Assembly (NCBI GenBank): GCA_977018835.1 | Contig: OZ361260.1 | Span: 3,782,001 to 3,846,000, forward strand | DNA length: 64,000 nt | Source: Minutocellus sp. GHC0000111 | Lineage: Eukaryota | Direction of reading: 5' to 3' | Shown: one piece after another, positions 2,896-56,931 of the stretch | How the letters are laid out: every line of letters starts with the position of its first letter | How positions within the stretch are numbered: position 1 is the first letter of the stretch | Notes under the pieces: generated by a model | Seen by the model: the letters and a program-made list of their open reading frames with translations, nothing else | Told to the model about the DNA's origin: nothing | Database searches by the model: none | Translations under genes and position numbers: made by a program

Positions 2896-3132
2896 CACGT
2901 TGGCGTTGTATCGGGCACGATCGAGGCCCGAAACGGACGGACAGACAGACCAACATTTCAAGGCAAAACCGGACGGACGGACAGACCGTTTCGGCGATCG
3001 CCGGCGGCCGTTCTCAGTCGAGCGAGTCATCCCCCAAAAAGGTCTGACCCTCCGTCCGGTTTTGCCTTGAAATGTTGGTCTGTCTGTCCGTCCGTTTCGG
3101 GCCTCGATCGTGCACGATACAACGCCAACGTG
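2896..3132. mobile_element. Foldback/MITE-like inverted repeat (237 bp, CAC...GTG ends)
   Basis: Arms of about 85 bp starting CACGTTGGCGTTGTATCG are near-perfect reverse complements and extend imperfectly to about 100 bp around a short spacer. No TSD found. Confidence 0.7.
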
Positions 3133-3483
3133 GAAAAAATGAAGCAATTTTTTGCAGAGCGAGTCTGGCCGTCGTGGCGTTTGAAAGCGACGGACAGATC
3201 AGATAAAATGAACCATCCTGCCTGCTGAAAATCCGGCTCATATCTTCCGTCGGAGAAGTTGCATTTGCTATTCATTAGCGCGATTCCAATCCACTGAGCA
3301 GCCCAACCTAGTCTTCAGCTGCTTCTTAACCATTGGCTTGATCTGGTTTTGGCGTTTCAGCTGGCACGGAGCTTGGCACACCGGCGCAGCTGATAGACCG
3401 ACATCAAACATAGACTTCAACTTCCAGTTTTCTGCTTCCCTCACGGAGTATTAGCGTGGAACATTGTCGTTCCGGCGTTACCG

Positions 3484-6187
3484 TTGCCGTTGCCGTTGCC
3501 GGACTACCCACGGTCGTATCGCAAGGCCATCACCAAGGGCAAGTATGCTGGGAGCAGCAGGATCGAGTGCACCCTCTGCAACAGGGCAATCGAGCCCAAG
3601 CATATTGATCGGCACGAAAGCGGAGAGTCCAAAAGGCACAACCACAAACTCGCGAAAAGATATGCCGAGGAGCAGCAGCGCAAACGGGAGCGAGAACTAG
3701 AGCGAACGCGAAAGTTGGAGCAGGAAGAGCAGGAGCGGAGGGAAAGGGAGCAGAAGCGGCAACGTGAGGAGGAACTGGAACGAGAACGAGAACGTCAACG
3801 GTAACGCCGGAACGACAATGTTCCACGCTAATACTCCGTGAGCAACGGCAACGGCAGATCGAAGCAAAACGAAAACGCGATGTCGAAGCGCTGGACAGAG
3901 AGCTGGAGGAGCAAAATAGCAGCGATGAGGCGATTGAAATATCTTCGACTAGTTCATCGTCGTCATCATCTTCTGATGGTGGATCTGATGCGAAGATCTC
4001 GTCCGACGATGATTCTGATGTGCAGCTTGTGCTCCCTCCTTCCAAAGCATTGGCGAACCCGCCAACATCGAGTGAGAAACCTGAAAAGCTAAAGGGAATA
4101 ACCCAGCGTCGTAAAGACGGTATGTGGCAATCGCAATTAAGTGTGATTGGCAGGAATCGGCACATTGGAATTTTCAGGACTCCTGAGGCTGCTGCCGCGG
4201 CCTATCAAGCTGTTCGAAAGGCACTTGATGAATCAGGATTGCCTCCCACGGATAGTGGTCGCCTTGCCTTGTTCGAATCTGTAAGGGCGAAGGTAAAAGG
4301 TGAAGCTGCGAAGACCACGAACGCTTCCGGTGCGTAATTTGTGCTTTGATTTGACGATATCTTCATCTGCATCATTTCTTGCAAAACGCCTATTTCCAAT
4401 CTTACAGTCAATTGTCATATTCCATCACTACAGCCACAAGTGCACCGCTTTCTCCTACCACTCCAGTTCGCACCGCCGGGGGTACGAACATCCCGTCCAA
4501 AAATACTCCCAAAGGAACTATAGTTCCATCTGATAGACACTACACAGGTGCTTCTGGTACCGTGAGATGCATGGAAACGACCGTGAGGGGCAGACCGTGT
4601 CAATTTTGCGCGGTACCGGACTCAAGATTTTGCAATTTGCATAGCAGTGATTCTACAGGTTGTAAGGGCAAACGGAAGCGAAGACCTGCTATTGACGACT
4701 GGGCGAATAACAATTCGCCCGGGTCAAGCTTTGACACTGAATCTCCTCGTCAACAAAAGAAGGCAAGGCGAACTGAGCCAAAGTCCGATCTTCAGGAAGT
4801 GGCAGCCAGCAATCTTGGTTTGACGTTGCCGAAGAAACCAAAAGGTGCTATTGGCAGCTTCATATTTTATCGGATGGAGAAAGCAGCCGAAATTGCAGCA
4901 TCGAATACATCAGCTTCCTCGACGGAAGTGTCTAGAATAATTGGAGAAAAATGGCATAGCCTATCGTCGGAGGAGAAGGCTGGCTACGACACTATGGCCA
5001 ACAAGTCGAAAAAGGAGTATGAACAGGCATACAAAAGATACAGAGTTGACCTTGATTCATTCAAGAAAGCTCACCCAGAATGGCAGGTCGAGTGCGACCG
5101 AATTGTAAAGGAACATACTGCTGAAGCATTGAAGGAATTGGACGATCACATTGCCACCCAAACTGTGTCGTCCAGTGGTCGCTCACTTTGGGGGTCAGCA
5201 CCGATTGCTCCGATTCCCAAAATCTCGGCTACCTCATCTTCATGTTCCAACGAGTTGATCTTAGGCGGCCTGAAAAATGGTTCCATTAGACTCGAGCCGA
5301 AATACGAAATCATTTTGGAAAACATTGAGCTTGTCATGGCAACCCGGGAGGACGAAGAACGCAAGAAATCAACCTCTATGTATCGCAGGGGTAATATCGG
5401 TCTCCGTTGCGTTCACTGCAAACACCTGCCGCGGTCGCAGCAGAAGAAACAGGCCCTCGTCTTTCCCGGGGATGCATCGTGTTTCGGTAGCAATTTCTCT
5501 AACTTTCGGAATCACTTTACGCTTTGCCAAAATGTTGGCAGCGAATTGAAGGCGCAGATAGAAAGTCCACCGGATTATTCACCACCTCCTAATCAGTACG
5601 TGTCTGTTCTTCCCTACTGCAAAGCAGTAGGAGAAACATTTGGGATCGAAGATGATCCCAATGGTACAGTTCGTTTCTCGATTGATGTGCCGCGAGGTGA
5701 AGAGCCGACATCTTTTCTGATCAAGTCTGATCGCATTTCTACCAATCCGTGTGTTCCAGCTCATAGGAGTATCCCACTGCATACACAAGACAATTGGCAA
5801 CGGCACCATACCCCGGAACGAGTACCTACGCTGAAATGCAACTACTGCAAGAAATCTTTTACTACTTCAAAAGGTCTCAAGTTCCATCTCGACCATGCAG
5901 TGTGTCAGGAAAGCATTGAAGGTACTGCCAATACAAATGACTCGATTCTTGATTCAGGAGAAGCCATACAAGGTCCAGTTGATACTGATGCCGCCACTTC
6001 AGATGCTTCATTGGCATGTAAGCACTGCAAGACATCGTTCACTACACTAAACGGTCTTAAGTATCATCTCGATCACGCAGTTTGCCAGAAAAGCAGTCAA
6101 TGTGCTGCCAATGCAGATGCCGAGATTTTGCCTATGGAGAGAGCACTTCCGATCTCCGATGGGAGCGAAGTACATGACTGGAGGTGA
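3484..6187 (+). CDS. Multi-domain DNA-binding protein: AP2-like domain, HMG box, diatom-type Cys/His domain and two C2HC Zn fingers; 5' part frameshifted or uncertain
   Basis: AP2-like KGITQRRKDGMWQSQ...HIGIFRTPEAAAAAYQ (~4090-4220). HMG box PKKPKGAIGSFIFY...IIGEKWHSLSSEEKAGY (~4830-5040). CNYCKKSF..HLDHAVC occurs twice. A predicted GT-AG intron at 4330-4433 joins the AP2 and HMG frames in phase. The ORF at 3484-3804 is in a different frame. Confidence 0.7.
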
Positions 6188-44500: not shown

Positions 44501-46019
44501 TTACTGGAACAGCCCCTTCTTGATGACCCGCCCAATGTTGCCGTGAAGCTTCTCGGTGGCGAGCTCTACAACGGCCTGGCTGGCCTTGCCAAGCTCACCT
44601 TCGTCATCCGCAGCCGAAGCGGCTGTAGCCGAAGCGGACGCAGCCGCGGCGGTACCCTGCCCACCACCAACTAAAGCAGGCGGGTTGCCACCCTCCGCGG
44701 ACGAAGCGCCGGCACCAGAAGGCGAGGCAGCACCACCGGCCGATCCGGCAGCAGCGGGAGGGGCAGCCATACCTCTGGCAGCCTGAGCACCGAGTCCACG
44801 GGTGCTGCGTCCACGTCCACCGCCAAGGCCAAGGCTCTGACCAAAGGCGTCGGCGAATGGATCGGCCATGCCACCCCACCCGCTGGCTCCCATACCACCA
44901 CCGGCCCCGCCGCCGGCCCCACCATGCTTGACGAGGTCCAAATCCCGAACCTTGTCGGCAGCCGAAGCGACCCGATCGGGGAAGCGATCGCGGTTCTCCG
45001 TCTCGAGCATGGGGGCCGAACCCAGCGTCCGCATCCACAGAAAGTTGTTGGTCAGGATGCCCATGACGTTCCGGGCGCTGCCGCTCATGTAGGTCTCGAC
45101 GTCGAGCTCGTAGTACCGGCTCCGGCACGATCCCCACCGCTCGAGGCGGGCCTGCTCGTCGGCGATGACGGTGCCGTCGGGACATTCGTTGGGGACGGGA
45201 GAGTTGTACTCCGGCGGGTAGGCACGGAAGGCCTTCATTTCGGGCACGTTCTTGGCCAGCGAGCGGAGTGGATCGATGACGACGGCCAGGAAGGGGTTGC
45301 CGTGCGGATCCTCGGCACGCTGCCATTGGAGCTGGGTGGTCAGATCGGTCTGGGAAAGGAAGCAGTGCGAGTTGATGCCGACGTCGAAGGGGTGGGAGTG
45401 ATACCATCCCATGAACTTCTCCTTCCGGGTGCGCTGATGATGCATGAAATGAATTGGATGACAAGAGGTGAAAGGGTGGATAGATGATATATCATCATGT
45501 GGTGAGACCTTGAGAAGATGCAAAGATATATTGTATCCATCCAAATGCTTTGCCCTGCATGAAGTCTCATCACTTGGCATAACTCGACACACAGGCAGAA
45601 CAAACTCACCTCCAGAGATTCTCCGAGCTCAATCATGTAATTGACCACGTCCTGATCGTCGGCAATGACCCGCGTCTCAAATCCCTCAATGGGCAGAGGA
45701 AAGACGTCGGTCACCACCAAGGTCTTGGGCGTGTCGGGATCGGGACGGCCCAGCATCAGCCCCATGACCTCGATGGGATTGCCCCCCTTCTTCAGTCCCT
45801 TCTCGACGCCGGAATGGCAGTGCATCAGCATCTTCATCACCGCCGAGGGACTGAAGGCGGCCGATTGGAAGTACTTGGGGTCGTTCTGCCACGGGGCCGA
45901 CGAGCGGAGGGAGGAGAGGCGGGCTTCGTCGAAGGTGTACCTAGGTAGCGCGCGTCGGACTTGTCGAGGGGAGCGGCGGTGGTTGCAGTAGAGGTGGTGG
46001 ATACTGGTTCGACCTCCAT
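44501..46019 (-). CDS. CSN5: COP9 signalosome subunit 5 (JAMM/MPN+), with an 8-bp frameshifting insertion near the N-terminus
   Basis: PW..DPKYF, MKMLMHC.SG, EVMGLMLG, FPLPIEGFETRV, GWYHSHPF, FLSQTD, AVVIDPLRS and AFRAYP. Intron at 45434-45609. Confidence 0.9.
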
Positions 46020-46311
46020 GTTTCGTAGAGTTTATTTTAGATGGCTGGGAGAGAGATGGGGGCTTTTCGTGGCCTTGCAGCTTGGCGCGTTGCCTTGCTC
46101 GGTGCTACCTCGGCGGAGCGGCGGCGGATTTGTGACCACCGCCATGGTTGTCTCGCTTCGGCTGAGTGCTTCTGAGCCAGCTTTTAAGAGGGCGCTGTCC
46201 ATAATTTTCCCCGTTTTTAATCCCCCTTATTCTTATTTCTTATGACGAGCGAAGCATGACAAAAACTCGACCCCACCATGAGAATCGCCGCTCTGCCCCC
46301 TCTTCATTACG

Positions 46312-47541
46312 ATGAAGCGCAGCGCTGATAATAGTGCCGGCCCGGCCCACAACGCAGATACGCGGTTGCGGAAACTCAAGACAGATAACTCCGGTCGCCC
46401 GATTTTGCCTGTTGACAAGAAGAAAGAGAAGGCGGAGGACAAAGCGAAAGACGCCGTTACCGAGATACTGGAGGGCCTCGCCGTCACGTTGGAGAACGAC
46501 CCGAACGGACAAGGACGAGAATTATGGAACAATCCCGGCGTCGGCCATGCACTTCAACATCTTGTCAAAGCAGTCGAGGCTCGCGCTGATAAGTATCATG
46601 TTCGGGATGATATTGATGTCGCTGCTGAGCGGCCCGGCCTCGTAGTTACCAACCTGTCCGTGGCTGATGTGAAGTTGAGGCTGACGGTCGGCATCGTCGA
46701 TCAATTGCAAGATCCCATGTTTGACGCCGGACCTGAATTCTTCCCTATATTTCAACTTCATGGGAAACGGATCGATATTGGATCGGCTCTTGCTGCGCAC
46801 GGCCGACCTTTCAACACCACATCGCTTACTTTGCTTGATGGAAGCGGAAAGCTTATCGTCGCTCGTGTTGCCCTGACAACTACCGAAAAGGCCCGAAGTC
46901 TACAACAGGGCCATGTGATCAAATTGACAAAGTTCCACCGATGGCATGTGGCTCCATATGATGACATACACTCTACTGCTGGGATTGGACTAGTTGATTT
47001 TGATATTGTTGGAATGGGCCAACTTCTGCAGGTAGATGGTGGGCCATCAGCAGCGATCAGATCGGACACGGATGCTCTTGTTGCGGCCGTTTGTGAGGAA
47101 GCCGACGATGATCCGACGGCAGCGCCGGAGGCAGACACATTCGGTAATTGGGACGAGACCAGAGAGAGGCCGCCAATACCCCCTGCTTGCTGCACTGCCG
47201 CCAACCGAAGCTGCTCAATGTACGGCACACTCTTCTTTCAGAAATGCGTCTGCGAAGAAATGCTGGTGCCGACGGAGGAGGACCTGGAGGATATCGCTGA
47301 CAAATACTACGCAACCACCATGCCAGTCGAAGCCATGGCAAATAATTTGAAGAGGAACATGCTGTATTGGTACTATGCAACTGAGGTGTATCATGTGAGA
47401 GGTTGGCTTGATCGGAAGCCCTTGCCAACCTGTCTAGTCTTTTGCATTAGGTTCATTTATCCAAATGATAAAGGTGAACGATATGTTGGATTCATCCCTG
47501 GTCATCAAGATGAAGAGGAAGAAGAAGAGGAAAATGCATAA
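46312..47541 (+). CDS. Transposon accessory protein: putative OB fold plus KolX/P2X7-intracellular-like C-terminal domain
   Basis: The C-terminus NNLKRNMLYWYYA...RKPLPTCLVFCIRFIYPNDKGERYVGF matches the KolX/P2X7 tail pattern (R..Y...R..LP.C....IR..FP...G.Y.GF). A Cys cluster lies upstream. Confidence 0.7.
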   Translation: MKRSADNSAGPAHNADTRLRKLKTDNSGRPILPVDKKKEKAEDKAKDAVTEILEGLAVTLENDPNGQGRELWNNPGVGHALQHLVKAVEARADKYHVRDDIDVAAERPGLVVTNLSVADVKLRLTVGIVDQLQDPMFDAGPEFFPIFQLHGKRIDIGSALAAHGRPFNTTSLTLLDGSGKLIVARVALTTTEKARSLQQGHVIKLTKFHRWHVAPYDDIHSTAGIGLVDFDIVGMGQLLQVDGGPSAAIRSDTDALVAAVCEEADDDPTAAPEADTFGNWDETRERPPIPPACCTAANRSCSMYGTLFFQKCVCEEMLVPTEEDLEDIADKYYATTMPVEAMANNLKRNMLYWYYATEVYHVRGWLDRKPLPTCLVFCIRFIYPNDKGERYVGFIPGHQDEEEEEEENA

Positions 47542-47645
47542 TCATTACCTCAACACATGTAGATAACAAGAATGTGCGTAGCACGTGAGTAACAGCACAC
47601 AATAAATCCATTTTTTTTTACAGTGATAAAATATTTTACACGTGT

Positions 47646-50079
47646 TTACAAGCTGCCATTTTCTCTCAGTATCGCCGGCATCCAAGAGCTAACATCATTT
47701 GCCGATACACCGAAGTTTGTCTTAGCTTTCTTATTATTTCTTGCAGATTTCTTGTTGCTGCCTGGGCTTCTGCGCTTCTTTCCGGCGTAAACGACAACGT
47801 CGTCAGCATCGTCGCATTGACATTCAGCCCGAGTGTGGCCAAGCTGCTTGCATTTCTGACACTGCTGGTCAATCTTCTTCTTGCGGCCAGGCTTTGCTGG
47901 TTTCGCCTTACCAGCAGCTAGGGCCCTGTTCTTCTTGTACACATAGTCCTTGTCGTCTTTCTCGCTTCTGTTTCGCAAGGCTGCTCGAAGGCGCTTGCTG
48001 TCGCTCTTGCTCTTTTTGTACTCATCGGTGCGCTTACGCGCAAGGTCGCCCTCGAGCTTCCGGTCAATTGCATCGAATCCATCTTTTCGGGTAGGAGAAT
48101 CCCTCGATCCCAACTTTTCAAGAACTCGCTCATTGAATTCCGTACCCAGTGACTTGTGGCCAGCGGCTCTACTTGTTGCATTTGGGTAGGCGTCTGAAGC
48201 AGTCAAATTCGGCCTTTTCCCCATCGTGAACTTCGTCACCATCCCGTTGAGCTGTTCGACGCCGGTGGTAGATTCCTTCTTGCAGTTGGAGTCGGCAGTA
48301 TTCTTGTTGATTCTCTTGGTTATTTCAAGCGTCATCTTGCGAATCGTGTCGTCACTAATCTCCAACATGTCGCCATCGAATTGATTCCCCGAGCTCCATT
48401 CCTCATCGAGCTTGCCATCACTCCAATCAGGATGAGCAATGCTGAGGCGAATCCAATCACACGTGTTGGTGGTGCAAAAAGTGTGAATGCCACATTGGTG
48501 ACGAACGACGGACTGGAGTTCTTTCTGAAGGAGGGCCAGATGACTTTGTTTTTCCTCCTCGGACACAGCACCATCGGGCTGATCGAGAACGCTGTGCTTG
48601 TACCGATCAGTAATCTTCGAAATGTCCTGTTTCATCCGATTGATGCGTGGTCGGGGGATGGCATTAAAATTTTCAACTCCCAACATTCTCGGCCAGATGC
48701 TCCTCTGCCACACCGGGGGAGCAGGAAGAGTTGCGATAGCAGAAGCCATCATGGTCGTACAGGGCCAGCATCTCATCCTTGCTCATGTTTTTGAGCTCAC
48801 TCGGCGTCATTGGATTGCCGGCTTCCCGCCTCTCCCTCAATCTTGCATTGCAGGCTCTCACGCAATAGTGGCAGCTTGCCTGAGAGATTCCCTTGTCAAC
48901 AACAAGGCCAGTTTCCTTGTCTACGGCAAATACCGCTGCAGCAGAGCCAGTGTAGCAATGGCCGTAGTCGCGTTTGAGGGCGCTGCCGTCTTGGGCCACC
49001 GTAACCACCGCCGCCGTGTGCATCTCGCCGCCTTGTTCAAACTCAACAGTCTTGCTGCTAGCGGCACATGCTTTTGCCCTATTCTCGTCAATGATTTCAT
49101 CAGCTGCTTCAATAGCCGCTGCTCTGCATTTCTTTTCCACCTGTCGGGCATTCTTTTCGGTCGGATGGACGATGTCGGCCTTCGTGCAGAAATTCATGAA
49201 GCGACTTGCGCACATGGCCTCATCTTCCGCTGCCTCCATCAGCTCCAAGTTCATTCCAGCCTGACTTCTAGAATGCTTTCTGCCGGGGCACACAACTTCT
49301 GACCTCTGGCCGATCCAAGTGCAAAAAGAAAAAGGTTGGTTGCATCTATCGCATCGCCATTCAAATGTAACGCCGAATCCACGCCGAACTGGCTCGGCCG
49401 AGAGATGCAGATTGCCGCACGATCGGTGGAGATTCTGTGCGAAATCATGCAGCTGCTTCATCTCAACCACAATTCTTTTGCCGTTGAGCTGCACGCCGGT
49501 GATGTTGGGACGATCGGCAGCGTTGGCGGTGGGAGTAGATGACCGACCGCCCGAAGAGTTCTTGTCGGAATAACATTTCAGCATCGCGTTGAGATGGGGC
49601 CCATGCTTTTCATCGTCCTGGAAGCAATTTTCAGGCATGGTCGGCAGTGATCGCTTGCCATTGCGTTGAGAGCGTGGGCTGGCGTTATCGGCTATTCTGG
49701 AGAAGCGGTAGAAGGGCTTTGCAACGTCAAGGCCTGATATTTTCTCTGGACGTCGTCGTTGGATGTTGACCTCGTGTCGTGTTGGGACGTGTTGAAGAGA
49801 TGATCGAACAAGAGAGATCTCTAAGCTCGGCGACACGCCACCGCGCATCAAGATACGAACAAGCTCATCAATAGTGTAGTAAGTACATCTGACGTCGTCT
49901 GGGAATGAGAGCAAGAGTGAGAGGATTGCCTCCTTGGCGTTAGCACGTGACGTTTTGTGTCGGCTCTGGCGCAAGACACGCTTTTCGATGAGAACCTTAC
50001 AAAAAGAACCCCAAATGAGGGAGACGTGCAAAAATACCCCAAACAAATATCCCCTTGCCTCCCAACAGCAAAACTTCAA
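47646..50079 (-). pseudogene. Kolobok/'Mutator-like' DDE transposase, split by an apparent internal deletion at ~48675
   Basis: QDGSALKRDYGH...TGLVVD...SCHYC...CYRNSSCSPGVAE (first catalytic D region), then in another frame HQCGIHTFC...TTGVEQLNG (catalytic E) and a CCHC knuckle CQKCKQLGHTRAEC. Confidence 0.75.
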
Positions 50080-50411
50080 GATATCTTCCCACCAGCACCA
50101 CCAATGCTGGTCATGCGTCGGCCGAGACTAATTTCGGTCGATCCGACGATGATGATGTGCACGTCGACTATTGTGTTTCTGAGGGAGAGTTGATTCATCG
50201 AAGTTCCTCTGAACCAAGTGTTCCTGGAGGGATTTCCGACTTAATGCTGAAAGGAACGTCGATGACTCTTCGCCACTGTGGAGAGCGGCGGCCTTCGATG
50301 AGGAGCCCATTGTCACGTTGGAGTGCTAACTTTGGCGACGGTGCGAAGAAAAAACGGCACAAAACACGCATTTTGGGGGCTTCCTAAAAGTTATGGACAG
50401 CGCCCTCTTAA

Positions 50412-52595
50412 CTCTTTGTTCCCGAAAGTTGCTCCCGGAAAGCGACGTCATTTTTTTTCAACGAAGAACAATGGCGGCACGCACTATTCGCTGTCTCCGT
50501 ACTCAGCGATCGCATCACGAATAACTTTCATATTGTAGTATCATTTGCCTCTCTACTTGGTCCACATATATATCTGGTTCGATAATACGCGACGCGCTTC
50601 CTCGTCGCGTATCTTGACACATCATCGCAGCACCGCATTTTCGTCAAACGACGACGAATTCCACCCAATTGCCTCCTCTCTCGGCCTTTGCGCAAAACGT
50701 CCGAATAGGGCCCAGCACCCTATTATTTCCAGCCCAGTCCCATCAATAACATCGCCCTCCATCATCTGAGAGGCTTGGTGAGTTCGCCGATCGAGTCGGT
50801 ATCTTTGTTCTCCTGCCGCCTGACGAACAATTCTCATTTATGCCCATTGTTCCTTCGTATTGCACTGTTCCACCCATTACAGCCCACCATGTCGGCAGAG
50901 GATATGGATATCGATACCGACGATGGCTCTGATGAAGATATGGTTGGTGTGGAGGGTGCTGGTCCTGACGACGATCTCCTCCACGATATTGAGAGTGGCA
51001 ACTTGCGGCCCCTCCAACAGCCACAAAACGTTGCCGCCGCATCAGATCTTGTGGCAGCTACTACCACCTCTACCACCGCCGTTCAACGCCGAAGGCAAAA
51101 CGAATCCATCGCCCATGATGATATTGTCGCCGGAAATATCATCATGGTCAGTCTTGGGTCAGTCTTGACTGCGAGACTACCGGTGTGGAAGGCATCCTGC
51201 TCCAACTATCGGCCGAATTCATCGACATGGCCACCAAGGAGACCATCGTTACGTTCAATTCCTTCGTCCGCCCTCCCGACGACGCCGAATGGAACATGAG
51301 GGCATGTCGGGAGTCCCATAACTATAGCAAGAATGATGAGCGTATCAGGAATGCCAGTGGTATTGAGGCAGTATGGACGGCATTTCATGACAAGTGCAAG
51401 GTTATTCTCGCCGCCAAGAAGGGCTTGCTTGTCGCTTGGCACGGAACGTCAGATTGCCAGCACATCTTCAAGATCGTCGAGGACACCCACAAGGGCAAGT
51501 TGTTCTTCCCGGGGGAGATTGAATATTTCTGTGATCCTTGTGCTGTTGTTGAGCACTACAAGTCGTGCCAGTTGCATGAGGTCCGCCGGGCTTCGGGCGT
51601 GGTGGGCTATGGTCTGGGGACGGTGTACGAGGAGGCGTTCGGCGAAAAAATTGTTGGAGCCCATGACTCTCTTGTCGATGCGAAAGCACAGACTAAGATA
51701 GTTTTGGACTCAAGGGTATTCAAATTTATTGATAGAAAGGCTTCTATCATGTCCCTGAAAGATGTTTGGTCGGCAAAGCGGAAGAAGCAGCAAGAGCATC
51801 GCATTCCTCCCATGCCGATGCAAGAGCTGCTTCTTCTGCAAGAACAATCTGACCGGCCCCGATGGCCCACCTCCGTCGCCCCGAAAACATCGCCGTCTAC
51901 CGCAACCTCCACCTGGTCCTCCCCCCGCCCACCGCCATGCAACAAAATATAGAGTCACTTTATTTGAGAATCCAAAGAGCTGTGGATTGTGCATGCAAGA
52001 GCAGAGGAAGCCACCGGTAGACAAGAGAGTTGAGGGTGAGAAATACATCAATAGAACTCGAGTTGGCTGTCCCCATCCTAATTGCCGGGCCCATCCAATT
52101 TGCAATGACCACTGGCCTAATTACAATCATGCAAAGTAAAATAAATATCATGCATGGTTGTTCTCACCTTTTATTCGGCGTCGTGGGCACAAAATGTAAA
52201 ATCCCGGTCGGACGACAATTCGCCAAATCGAGCAAAGCCAACCACCACCCCTCATCACAAATACCACAGCCGACCTTATGAGGGGTATGGGGCATGCTGG
52301 TATCGCAGCTGGAACAATGCGCTTGTATTCGAAGCAATAAGTGGTCGTGAAATCGGCCGCATCGAGGCACTCTGACGAATGAGAAGCGCTCGCGATGTTG
52401 AGAAAAGATACCGGTAGATACGGTGTACATAATGAAAGTAGAGATGACGGCCATTAATATGATGTGTTATGGGTGCAAGAAAGCGGCGGGAAGGTTGCCG
52501 TCGCTACCCGTGAAGTTCCACCATGGTGGCGTGCATATGTGGTTTTGCGAGTGGCCGTTTTTTTTGTGCATTTTGGTGCGCCGGGGAACAAAGAG
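50412..52595 (+). mobile_element. piggyBac-like non-autonomous element (2184 bp) carrying a DEDDh exonuclease
   Basis: 12-bp TIRs CTCTTTGTTCCC (50412-50423) and GGGAACAAAGAG (52584-52595), TTAA at 50408-50411 and 52596-52599, and a Cys-rich tail resembling the piggyBac CRD. Confidence 0.75.
50889..52139 (+). pseudogene. DEDDh 3'-5' exonuclease domain joined to a piggyBac-type Cys-rich C-terminus (disrupted)
   Basis: Removing the 11-bp tandem duplication GGTCAGTCTTG (51146-51167) gives VSLDCETTG...FNSFVRP...LVAWHGTSD...AHDSLVDAKA. After a frame switch at ~51795 it reads PCRCKSCFFC...CGLC...RTRVGCPHPNCRAHPICNDHW. Confidence 0.75.
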
Positions 52596-52639
52596 TTAAA
52601 AGTACAAAACCTGAGACTGCAACGGCGGGTTGCGCCACA

Positions 52640-55600
52640 GCACAAGAAGGAACCTCGTTGGATCATGCGTGTGGAGACTCCGGATGCAAATTCTTGGACC
52701 TGGCGACGGATGTGCTTGAGGAAGGCGTCACTGGACCACCGCCCTACCAGCATGATTGTGTACGTGGGAACATCATTTAGACACATTGCCATTGCTGCTC
52801 CGCTGCGAATGGAGTGTGATCCGAATTCAGAGGGGGATGGCAGCCAGCCCAGGACGTCCTCTCTCCAATCACTGTGGCCGACGCTCTCGGATCTTGTCAA
52901 CTATTCGGGTGGCAGGAATGTATTTTAATGCGCCGTTGACCACGAAGGCATTTACCGGCGTGTCGCTGTTGGCACTAGGGTGCCCTAGGACTCGTTTCAC
53001 CAGGGCAGCCCAAGCTCGAACTGGCTGGGCAGAGGGTGGCGTCGTGGGTGCAGTGTTGCGCAATCGTGACGTCACGCTCGTCGTTCTTCTGGAACTCAAA
53101 GGTGACGGAGACAGAGTCTGCTGAGAGGAGGGACCGGTCGTTGTGACACATGCGCCGTCGGCCGCGGCAGAACTGGATGTTGCGGAGGCGGAGCAGCTTG
53201 GTCCTGCGCTCACCGCTGACTCTCTGGAGTGTTCGCAAGACCTCATCGCGAAGAAGGCGCCGACGACGGCTAGTTGCCCGACTGCACGGTCCTCTTCCGT
53301 TTCCCTGACGGAGGCGATCTCTCGGAGGAGCCGGCAGGTGATCGCCTTCTCCGGCCGCTCGGCCGGGTCGGACTGGCTGTGTCCTCGGAACTGCCGCTGC
53401 AGAAGGAATGAAGGCTGGCCGATGTCGTCTTTCCCTGGGTCCCTGCGCTGCTGGTTGGTGCCGGAAGGACGAGCGTGCATGTGAGACGGTGTCTCGGACT
53501 GTCGACGCAGCCAGTCGCGAAAACTTTGGCCCCGAAAAGCTGGCCTGTCGGACGGCGTGGGCAAAGGCGCCGAGAATGACTGTTCGGTCTCGGGGTGATG
53601 CCTTGTCGAGGAAGACGTCGTCCCCGGTCCCGATGAGCTGCAGGAGCTCAGTCCAGCGGCTCCACGCGAGAGCGTGTTTCTCGGCAGTGGCCGTTGCAAC
53701 TGCTTCCTGACGGGCAGCGTCCGCGCCTGCGAGACAATCCAGGAAGCAATCTCGTTGGGCAGTGGCGCAATCCTGAAATTTGAGGGAAGCTGACATTCGG
53801 GAGATGACAGAAGCAATTTCGTGAGGTCAGCATCAGAGAGAGATCGGCATCACGAGAAAGAGAGTCGGCCTCCGGATTGCGCTTCCCCTGGAGCCACTGT
53901 GAGTGCAGCATGGTGTTGGTCTCGATGAGCATGTCGGCTAGTTTCCGCGCCGTGGCCAGCTTGACCGCTGCGTCGGCATCCTTCTCTCGCCGTGAGACAC
54001 GAAGTTCGACTTCCTGAGCCATCCCTCGGCCGTGGTGCTGTCGGTCCCCGACAGTGCGCAGGAGAGGGTTGGCAGGTTGCCCTCGATGTGGTCGATCCAT
54101 GGGCCGATGACGGCGGCGAGGAATTCCAGGCAATTGAGGGTGAACCGGCCCCACAGCTCCTCGGGGAGGGCAAATCTCCACGCTCTGCCGGATGAGGACC
54201 ATCCGCCGATGCCGTGCTCGCAGGCGTCACTTGTGTGCTCGTGGGTGGGGCAACGGCACGTGAGGAGGTTCATGCTCATGCCATCGGCGGCCCTTCGGAG
54301 GAAGCGGAGCCACAGGTTGAGGTCTTCTGCATCCTCAGAGTCGAACCGTTGGCGGCCGTGGCGGCGGGCCTTCCAGAGCCGATCCCGAAGGCGGCTGAGG
54401 AAGTGTCGTGCGGCTGGAGTGATGTGTCCGACGTGGTTTAGCCTTCCGACCAAGGTGTCCAGCTCTGATCTGGTGGCGCCGCGGGCTCTGAGGAGCCGAA
54501 GCATGTCATCGCGCCAGGCCAGGTGCTTGCTCCAAGGGAGCCTCAGCGGGAGCCGCCGGGTGTCAGCATCCCACCCCAAGAGACACAGTGCTTCGGAAGG
54601 CGTCCCCTCGGCGAGCAGCTTCTTGATGGAGGCAAGGTCATCTCTGGGCAGTGGCTCGCTATCGGATGCCGGTCGGCCAAGCGCGTGGATGGCGAGGAGG
54701 GTGGCAGCGGACATCCGATCCTTGTTGTCGCCCAGGTCAGGGGCTGCGGCGATGAGGTCATCGACGTGCGGCTCGACGATGCCATCCTTGTTGTCGGGAA
54801 GGGTTGCGATCATGTCCAGGGCCGGCGCGAACGGCACATCGTCGCCCTCCACCTTGGGGCGACCCACGTGCTTCTGCTGGGGGCTGTGGAGCTCTGACGG
54901 GTCCCAGTCCGAGCATTGCAGGAGAGGGCCCTGGCCAGGTCGGCCGCCGATTCGGACACATTGCACCACTCGCTCGGGCAAGGGCGGCCGCCGAAAGTCA
55001 GCCGGAGGGACATGAGGGCAATGCCATCCAGGGTGGTGATCGTTTTGACGGCCGTGCTGGGAGCCAAGTGGGCCCGGCGACACGCAGCCTTGAAGTCGAC
55101 CTTCTGCAGGAGGATGGGAGTGCGGGGATGCTTGTGACGGGCGTCTGCGATGCAGTGGATCACTCGCCGGAGGGCATGGCCGAACACCACTGGCTGGTGG
55201 TCCTCCATGCGTGCTCTGTTGTTGACGGACCGTGCGGTGCCGATCTCGAAGGATTGGTCGTGAGTCAGGCGGTCCTTGGGCGTGATCTCGCCAGCCTCGC
55301 TGATCGTGTTCTGTGCTACCAAACCCATCGGAGCCACCTCCGCTCCAGGAATGAGGGGCGCGACCTTTGCTGGCAGAGGGAGGGCGAAGCCGCGGGTCAC
55401 GTCGTCGAGAACTTGGTCCTTGAGTGCCTCCGGCCTGTCCCTGGCCGATTTGTGGTTGCCTCGGCCGATGTTCTTTGTCACGCTGTCCAGTCTGCTTTCG
55501 TCGCTCACCGGATCGAGGGCCCAGTCGGATCCACTGTCGAGAATGGAGCGGAAGCGGGGCCACAGCGGGTGCCGGCCAAGAATCGGCTCCAGAAGACTCA

Positions 55601-55830
55601 GGTCTCTGAACTCCGATCCCGGTTGGAGTGGCGACCCGCCCTGCGCCTCGAGTGCCCTGCTCAGAGAACGATCGTGTTTCTTGAGGACCGACCAATTGTG
55701 AGCGGCGGCCTCCGTCAAGAGCTCAAATCTGAACTCCGTGGGCTTCGGTGTGGCCGACGGGGACTCGACTGCTCGTCGGACGTGCTGTGCCAAGGTGGAA
55801 ACATCGAAGATGGGCTCTAGTTCCCACGTG
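52640..55830 (-). mobile_element. Degenerate tyrosine-recombinase retrotransposon (DIRS/Ngaro-like): RT, RNase H and YR; 5'-truncated, several frameshifts
   Basis: RT: RLTHDQSF, KVDFKAACRR, RLTFGGRPCP, HVDD, LLGW. RNase H: SDAC..GIGG, NCLEFLA, TDSTTA, NPEADSLSR. YR: FFAMRSCE, FQKND, LCP, HSIRSGAA, GRWSSDAFLKHIR. Confidence 0.9.
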
Positions 55831-56931
55831 GAATTGCACAAGGCGAGAAAGGTGAGACATGCACATGCTGCACGTTCACGAGCATGCGGGTCTGTCCGAC
55901 CGTGGTGGGCCCATTGTGGGCGCTGGGCTGCCCCGTTTGTTGTAGGTGTTTCTTCACCTGTTGGTCTCACTTGCCAATCCAACTTTTACAAACAGCGTCG
56001 CGATTGAGCAAAAAAGTAAACAGTGCACCCAAACAAACACATCACGTCCTTCTTAACTCACCCATTTATCTCCCAGACCAAAAAGTCCCTTTGTCGGGTT
56101 GATTGTTGCATAAACTTATCCCAATGCTGTCTGTCTCTCCTCGGGCGCAAAACTGTTGTCGGAATTCCGGGAGGTCGAGTGGGGATGCGATCGGTCGGGA
56201 TCAGCGAGAGTCGGTCATGCGGGGGGTGCGGCGCAATCCCGGCAGTTTATCATCAACAACAACGTGGGAAAGTGCCAGAGGGTCTGGGGCATCACAACGG
56301 GAGCACGACGAGCACAAAGACGGAGCAATGGTGCCACCCCAGAGAAACGAACGGCCGACAGATGGAGGAAAAGCAGGCCGATGGTTCGTGGCGTTGATGC
56401 GCAGCGGAGGCCAATCTGAGGATGCAGTGAGCTTCAACTACATCCAAACATGATAATGAATGCGTATTTGGTACGAAAATATAGTTGTACGCCGGCGCAA
56501 CGCCGACGGACCACCATGGTGTTGGACGGTCAAAGAATGGGTGACGAACGAGATTGGGTTTTGGTGGGTTTCTTCGTGACGTGTTCGTCTTCTGCCGAAA
56601 AACGCTTCATCCGACCGGCGAAACAAGACGAGATGGGGCTGTGTGCCCTTGCTTGCCTTCGCTTCCGCAGGCCGCGGAGATGTACTGCAAAGGCATAGAG
56701 GCGCCTTGATGTCTGTGGCCCCTGCCTGACTAGGGGTACTTTCTTGGTCATGAAGGAGGTTGTGGCTTCATTCTCAGCAGCAGGCAGATTTTGCAGATTC
56801 AGATTCGCGTGGCAGGCCGCATGAAAATAATGAGATGCGACCAAGACATGCATGGTGGAGAATGAGCAAATCTTGCCTCGAAGCAAAGTTCAAAGTTCAA
56901 CTCTCTCCTCTGCTGCCTGCTACGCTCTACG

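Follow-up and report, generated by a model that had tools for sequence, protein, structure and literature searches.

The 2,184-bp element at positions 50412–52595 of a 64,000-nucleotide stretch of Minutocellus sp. GHC0000111 DNA (hereafter, the window) is almost certainly a piggyBac copy damaged by a frameshift and an internal deletion. In its lineage a DEDDh 3′–5′ exonuclease, a DDD transposase core and a Cys-rich tail are fused. The copy contains no intact transposase ORF, the core being deleted and the frame shifted, and is a non-autonomous, dead derivative of this lineage. It matters only as a pointer to its family.

Element ends were searched for by pairing the window's 53 TTAA sites in every combination with a spacing of 0.2–20 kb. 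Pairs with at least 7 consecutive inverted matches, or with 13 of 20, were accepted, the control being internal, with no shuffling. Two pairs passed, one bounding the exonuclease element and the other a neighbouring element. As the preliminary description had it, inverted repeats and TTAA target-site copies enclose the exonuclease element: the repeat is perfect over 12 bp, and TTAA is present on both sides. The features of the copy are as follows.

50408–50411, no strand: left TTAA target-site copy, common to the right end of the adjacent Kolobok-type element
50412–50423, plus strand: left terminal inverted repeat, 12 bp, starting with CTC (YY-type end)
50778–50882, plus strand: 5′-leader intron of 105 nt with GT..AG borders, missing from an RNA contig that otherwise matches the window without differences
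50889–51145, plus strand: start codon and acidic low-complexity N-terminus; the window frame stops at 51299 (136 aa)
51146–51167, plus strand: 11-bp tandem duplication, a frameshift right before the first catalytic Asp
51167–51790, plus strand: DEDDh 3′–5′ exonuclease domain
51798–51803, plus strand: internal-deletion junction; its microhomology amounts to at most 6 nt, of which 3 nt are directly demonstrated
51798–52139, plus strand: Cys-rich C-terminal part of the transposase, in a different frame from the exonuclease
51980–52167, minus strand: 188-nt GT..AG intron of an antisense RNA from the right end, found in RNA runs X6 and X10 from two studies
52584–52595, minus strand: right terminal inverted repeat, 12 bp
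52596–52599, no strand: right TTAA target-site copy

Different flanks were found before 50408 in contigs of sequencing run X4 and after 52599 in contigs of run X14, as expected of a mobile family. No flank-to-flank joint of an empty site was present among the matches listed for six sequencing runs, a comparison of contigs only that does not prove absence.

The left TTAA also bounds a second TTAA-flanked element (46184–50411) with 17-bp inverted ends of the RR..YY (Kolobok) type, a sharing that the preliminary description does not mention; one of the two elements is inserted in the other's target copy. The neighbour contains a PF20700 ORF (48673–50127, minus strand, E 1.2e-13), downstream of it an ORF with a weak zinc-knuckle match (47646–48782, minus strand) and, on the opposite strand, an ORF without a Pfam match (46282–47541, plus strand), the C-terminus of which may resemble KolX. 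Its summed depth across the sequencing runs compared is very high, and a second copy of its end, at 109–707, is 92.7% identical to 49844–50412. Near its left end starts a JAB/MPN-domain gene (PF01398, E 6.9e-8; 45340–46104, minus strand). A GC-rich repeat present in many copies (52644–55985) starts about 45 bp after the exonuclease element; long ORFs overlap one another on its minus strand. Its motifs presumably resemble those of a tyrosine-recombinase retroelement; a Pfam scan of the repeat gave no match supporting a retroelement. The window also contains a 237-bp imperfect palindrome (2896–3132) and a 58-bp inverted repeat (3440–3842). Kolobok identity was considered for the exonuclease element itself on account of the shared TTAA, since Kolobok elements target TTAA and have RR..YY ends according to the available part of PMC9587614; it was rejected because the ends are YY, not RR..YY, and the core is PF13843.

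The preliminary description mentioned one broken ORF with a junction at about 51795. The ORF is indeed broken, by two lesions, and the junction lies at 51798–51803. The frame opened by the ATG at 50889 has the acidic N-terminus ascribed to it (15 of the first 40 residues are D or E) and ends after 136 aa because the 11-bp duplication shifts it before the DCETTG motif. Around the duplication, the X4 and X5 contigs fall 11 nt short of the window. In the homologous protein P0008, which is 95% identical in the exonuclease, the same N-terminus is in frame with the exonuclease and reads through.

At the junction about 1.77 kb coding for the linker, the DNA-binding domain and the DDD core is missing. 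A 3,395-nt contig of run X14 (contig 11) follows the window as far as 51801, carries about 1.77 kb of additional sequence and resumes the match at 51801. A second contig, in runs X1 and X4, diverges from the window past 51803; translated by hand, the bases that follow there encode the linker motif of the family, ELTRAVP. Internal deletion, as proposed earlier, is thus supported both by an undeleted relative and by a second copy that runs into the transposase linker. The X14 contig differs from the window at 34 of 302 positions to the left of the junction and at only 3 of 140 on its right side; the tail of the window copy is, moreover, not shared by the second copy of X1 and X4. Given this uneven divergence and the unshared tail, recombination between two subfamilies, instead of a simple deletion, may have produced the window copy.

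To the right of the junction, the Cys-rich tail (third frame, ending at 52139) matched a profile of the C-terminal region of the fused transposases with E 1.5e-25 and aligned with P0006 residue for residue, which upholds both the tail and its kinship to piggyBac. A Pfam scan of the tail returned zero matches, zinc fingers included.

The window copy is transcribed. Contig 29 of RNA run X6 joins 50462–50776 to 50882–51643 with 0 differences from the window; moving the cut by +1 gives GT..AG borders. This spliced RNA keeps the 11-bp duplication. The spliced antisense RNA contains a 103-codon ORF, which had no match in the 80 metagenome loci described below, and is treated as non-coding.

The exonuclease domain has the full DEDDh motif set claimed for it: the Exo I D-x-E in DCETTG (51167–51184), the Exo II Asp in AWHGTSDC (51434–51457) and the Exo III H-x4-D in AHDSLVDA (51659–51682), with codons of the catalytic residues starting at 51167 (D), 51173 (E), 51452 (D), 51662 (H) and 51677 (D). 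Pfam RNase_T matched the exonuclease frame with E 1.9e-4 and 22.5 bits, slightly below the 24-bit cut-off. The structure of the domain was predicted with a pLDDT of 96.6, and the fold of this model is DEDDh, i.e. DnaQ-like (Z 18.5, rmsd 2.6 and 178 aligned residues against 1w0h). Several proteins tied in the fold comparison: 3′hExo/ERI1 (Z 18.5), TREX1 (18.4), Exuperantia (18.1) and Plex9.1 (17.9), with DnaQ close behind (range Z 18.5–17.2). ERI1/3′hExo was first in Foldseek and tied first in VIA. Since TREX, ERI1 and DnaQ tie within a Z of about 1, the fold cannot tell a DNA from an RNA substrate. A sequence-profile search gave CRN-4, ERI2 and ERI1 as the best solved structures, the profile matches being weak and split; phrog_192, 'DNA polymerase exonuclease subunit', was matched by 37 of 75 family members. 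The ESM Atlas returned phage RNase_T-like clusters only, all below 0.9. One homologue, P0009, has two tandem exonuclease domains in one protein. In the lineage's protein the exonuclease is conserved and probably active.

Exonuclease homologues were found in 303 clusters at E ≤0.001, of which the best 150 were examined and the 153 weaker ones left out. PF13843 was present in 4 of 5 longer homologues, one of them from Thalassiosira exigua, with E values down to 2.6e-53, and a second cluster holds a member from T. oceanica, which makes a diatom the probable host of the window. In relatives from T. exigua, T. oceanica and marine metagenomes, the exonuclease, the piggyBac DDD core and the Cys-rich domain occupy one ORF. 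When 154 homologous proteins were compared with linker and core profiles, themselves built from 9 of the same 154, 69 extended at least 60 aa past the domain and 57 of these 69 entered the piggyBac linker; 3 of the other 12 jump directly to the core or the tail, in a deletion-like manner. Homologues extending at least 250 aa reached the core in 16 of 18 cases.

The reverse test started from patterns of the core, derived from the family itself, and yielded 194 confirmed metagenome loci, 80 of which were kept. At least 1,300 nt of upstream sequence was available for 33 of the 80, and 26 of the 33 carry the exonuclease. The seven exceptions are five distant piggyBacs (29–30% identity, on a long separate branch) and two loci in which other DNA has taken the place of the 5′ half. 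Sixteen loci (12 distinct) are single uninterrupted ORFs, and complete TTAA-flanked elements with one intact ORF exist (e.g. L001, L017, L029 and L030). At least 12 relatives have TTAA at both ends and inverted repeats, mostly starting with CC; eleven of these 12 measure 3.4–4.5 kb, and the 2.2-kb L054 is internally deleted itself. Further internal deletions, seen as shortened spacing between exonuclease and core, affect 7 of 40 two-domain loci (L007, L028, L038, L045, L054, L055 and L071), and P0079, P0135 and P0140 are deleted members as well. Thus, longer copies of the kind that the preliminary description suggested looking for are numerous, and the transposase–exonuclease fusion that it proposed for a piggyBac lineage is supported by them; the refuting case that it named, in which no related copy would link the exonuclease to a piggyBac core, does not hold. 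The label 'Transposase IS4/Exonuclease' had already been given to one member by automatic annotation.

A model of full-length P0016 (pLDDT 84.5, pTM 0.73) aligned with piggyBac 6x67 over residues 369–883 (Z 32.0, rmsd 2.6, 408 aligned) and, in the same chain, with TREX2 over residues 107–326 (Z 20.2, rmsd 2.6, 194 aligned). The pTM, reached despite 100 disordered residues, suggests that in the model the exonuclease has a fixed placement relative to the transposase. The first 300 aa of the ORFs from the 16 intact loci contained no zinc knuckle. Viral contigs contained no relatives, by core patterns or by exonuclease; among 81 pattern matches in prokaryote genomes, one was a weak 29% core-only match. 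A full-length profile search returned 9 proteins. A word-limited profile search that looked for the exonuclease as a free-standing protein gave 35 proteins, all apparently of the family, and no cellular donor.

Catalytic residues are kept in both domains. In the 16 intact loci the DEDDh positions are D in 15/15, E in 15/15, D in 15/16 (with one E), H in 16/16 and D in 16/16; across all 154 proteins, fragments included, the corresponding counts are 75/80, 79/82, 119/139, 131/136 and 123/133. The five positions are among the most conserved columns. The DDD residues of the core are present in 25/25. The equivalent of Y283, aligned to 6x67, is Y in 21 and F in 4 of 25. The equivalent of Y439, a number that we assume for the hairpin-binding position, was located from its distance to the third Asp and from the alignment with piggyBat, and is Y in 25/25. 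The exonucleases of the window and of X14 were compared through 31 listed changes, out of 34 differences, and 19 of the 31 proved synonymous. The sites number 66 synonymous and 234 non-synonymous, which puts the ratio near 0.2.

The histories of the two domains largely agree. In 20 elements exonuclease and core distances are correlated (rho 0.80, 0 of 5000 permutations), and 7 of 9 supported splits of the exonuclease tree recur in the core tree, with 1 conflict. This favours one old acquisition, as far as a thin core-tree outgroup of 5 rows goes. Together with the kept catalytic residues, the largely congruent trees point to a lineage-wide fusion rather than to a host exonuclease gene caught once between piggyBac ends, the preliminary description having offered host-gene capture as its alternative. 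Such a one-off capture could be entertained from the window alone, where the DDD core is absent; it is contradicted by the undeleted relative, by sequencing runs that continue into the transposase linker, by the one-ORF fusions and by the congruent trees, and no stand-alone cellular gene was present among the close homologues examined. We consider it scarcely credible. One ancestor would have gained the exonuclease, and purifying selection would then have kept it.

The family shares with canonical piggyBac (Trichoplusia ni PB, 6x67/6x68; piggyBat, 9c0f; PF13843) the TTAA copies, short YY-type inverted ends, the DDD core, the hairpin-binding tyrosines and the C-terminal Cys-rich region. It differs in that the transposase ORF also encodes a DEDDh domain at its N-terminus, which makes proteins of 860–1230 aa compared to 578–594 aa of piggyBac PDB chains; canonical piggyBacs, as had been noted, transpose without an exonuclease. 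The window copy differs from canonical piggyBac in the loss of the core, and its ends start with CTC, those of most relatives with CC. TREX1/TREX2, ERI1/3′hExo and DnaQ epsilon (Z 17–20) as well as Cas2-DEDDh (PDB 8fyc, Z 13.7) have the same DEDDh fold and active-site residues at 13–20% identity, and none of them is known to be fused to a eukaryotic transposase.

DDE-type transposons with a DnaQ-like 3′–5′ exonuclease, and a proposed role of it in 3′-end processing, are described in the available parts of PMC9587614 (KolobokD) and PMC3706591 (Dada, from Laccaria and Ectocarpus). Judging by the same parts, both belong to superfamilies other than piggyBac; Dada targets small-RNA genes, and its exonuclease is DEDDy and lies inside the catalytic core, whereas that of the piggyBac lineage is DEDDh and N-terminal to the core. 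In the literature searched (main texts, outside Repbase and subscription papers) DEDDh and piggyBac were brought together only in PMC3627910, the available text of which pairs them in one sentence and gives no host, architecture, sequence or test. The main text of the meeting report that it cites (PMC3520738) contains neither 'DEDD' nor 'piggyBac', and the accessible portions of PMC6431247, PMC5718144 and PMC10719622 make no piggyBac–exonuclease link. The exonuclease-fused piggyBac lineage is real and widespread, and may be the one named, without description, in that sentence; it is less novel than the preliminary description implied, the association being already named, as far as the available text goes, in PMC3627910.

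A peculiarity of the closest relatives is a 19-residue N-terminal segment with a mean hydropathy of at least 1.8, found by hydropathy count only in 14 of 105 N-termini. All 14 belong to a single 17-row clade with support 0.75 (9 distinct clusters), which has higher identity to the window copy than any other clade. Carriers include P0003, P0004, P0005, P0009, P0010, P0015, P0037, P0123 and L001, and L006 has such a segment too. By the same count, no strongly hydrophobic N-terminal segment is present in the window copy or in P0008. The segment is predicted from sequence to be a membrane helix or a signal anchor, which is odd for a transposase.

As to the role of the exonuclease, the explanation that we consider best overall, and somewhat probable, is that a dead fused-piggyBac copy represents a family in which the exonuclease likely trims unpaired 3′ ends of its own transposition intermediates. 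According to the available part of PMC7351741, piggyBac forms hairpins that open to a 4-nt TTAA overhang, the donor is repaired seamlessly, and the hairpin-binding positions Y283 and Y439 have roles in this process. From the chemistry given there it can be deduced that all ends would be 5′ overhangs with a recessed 3′-OH. The intact protein would cut and paste via this ordinary hairpin/TTAA route, with the exonuclease domain acting in cis, on DNA. Since the ordinary route leaves 5′ TTAA overhangs only, the likely substrate would be an off-pathway end. A hairpin cut open at an incorrect bond, for instance, would leave the transferred strand with additional 3′ bases, and their removal down to the paired end would rescue integration, much as Cas2-DEDDh does on CRISPR integrase substrates. 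A role in 3′-end processing has likewise been proposed for the exonucleases of Dada and KolobokD. No obligatory substrate is evident, since transposition of canonical piggyBacs needs no exonuclease and the hairpin residues are conserved in the family. Trimming of overhangs is a habit of TREX2, RNase T and Cas2-DEDDh. By analogy with it, trimming of aberrant 3′ extensions in cis could account for the fusion, and it would suit the lean of phrog_192 matches toward the DnaQ type; we rank it first among the roles, tentatively and at a little short of an even chance. A 3′–5′ exonuclease beside the transposon 3′-OH could also do harm, and the predicted membrane helix of the closest subclade fits poorly with a nuclear role in cis.

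That helix would sit better with counter-defence, in which the exonuclease destroys silencing triggers, either small RNAs, as ERI1 would, or loose DNA by-products, as TREX1 would, possibly while tethered to a membrane. TREX1 has a membrane anchor. The lead of ERI1/3′hExo in Foldseek, its tie for first in VIA and the CRN-4, ERI2 and ERI1 profile matches point the same way, as do the sense and spliced antisense RNAs of the element, which could provide a double-stranded trigger. However, Pfam scans of the relatives revealed no RNA-binding partner domain such as SAP, library matches lean toward DnaQ-type DNA exonucleases, and a suppressor acting in trans needs no fusion, yet the fusion is kept across exonucleases of 23–62% identity. 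Counter-defence is accordingly a minority possibility, which we regard as unlikely. A bolder reading, which we find doubtful, would make the captured TREX-like exonuclease a working part of the transposase that in the nearest subclade is anchored in the membrane at the ER or nuclear envelope, clearing the element's own DNA or RNA signals from surveillance and reaching chromatin only if released or if spliced without the anchor, as in the subfamily of the window copy.

It is also conceivable, if improbable, that the exonuclease acts at the donor site, nibbling the recessed 3′ ends of the empty site, delaying TTAA re-joining and favouring copy-back from the sister chromatid or homologue, with a net gain of copies. 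Internal deletions are a usual product of aborted gap repair, as in Ac/Ds and P, and are frequent in the family (the 7 of 40 two-domain loci, P0079, P0135, P0140 and the window copy), although piggyBacs without an exonuclease yield deletion derivatives too. Seamless repair does depend on complementary 4-nt overhangs (PMC7351741, available part), but 3′ nibbling would leave the 5′ overhangs able to anneal and would make no 3′ tails for homologous repair. We give very little credit to the domain being a passenger or a non-catalytic DNA-binding module of the Exuperantia kind: Exuperantia ties in the fold comparison of the domain model (Z 18.1; 19.8 in a second comparison) and some catalytic positions vary in fragments and decayed copies, but all five stay among the most conserved columns and are kept in intact elements.

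Cis trimming of off-pathway ends remains our tentative first choice. PiggyBac is a main gene-delivery tool, and as its chemistry leaves no 3′ overhang, it is a pointed question why a lineage should keep a 3′–5′ exonuclease fused to the transposase. Kolobok, Dada, P and piggyBac have all been found with accessory exonucleases, the role of which is only proposed in the literature found. The complete one-ORF elements of this family make a comparison of active and dead exonuclease direct.
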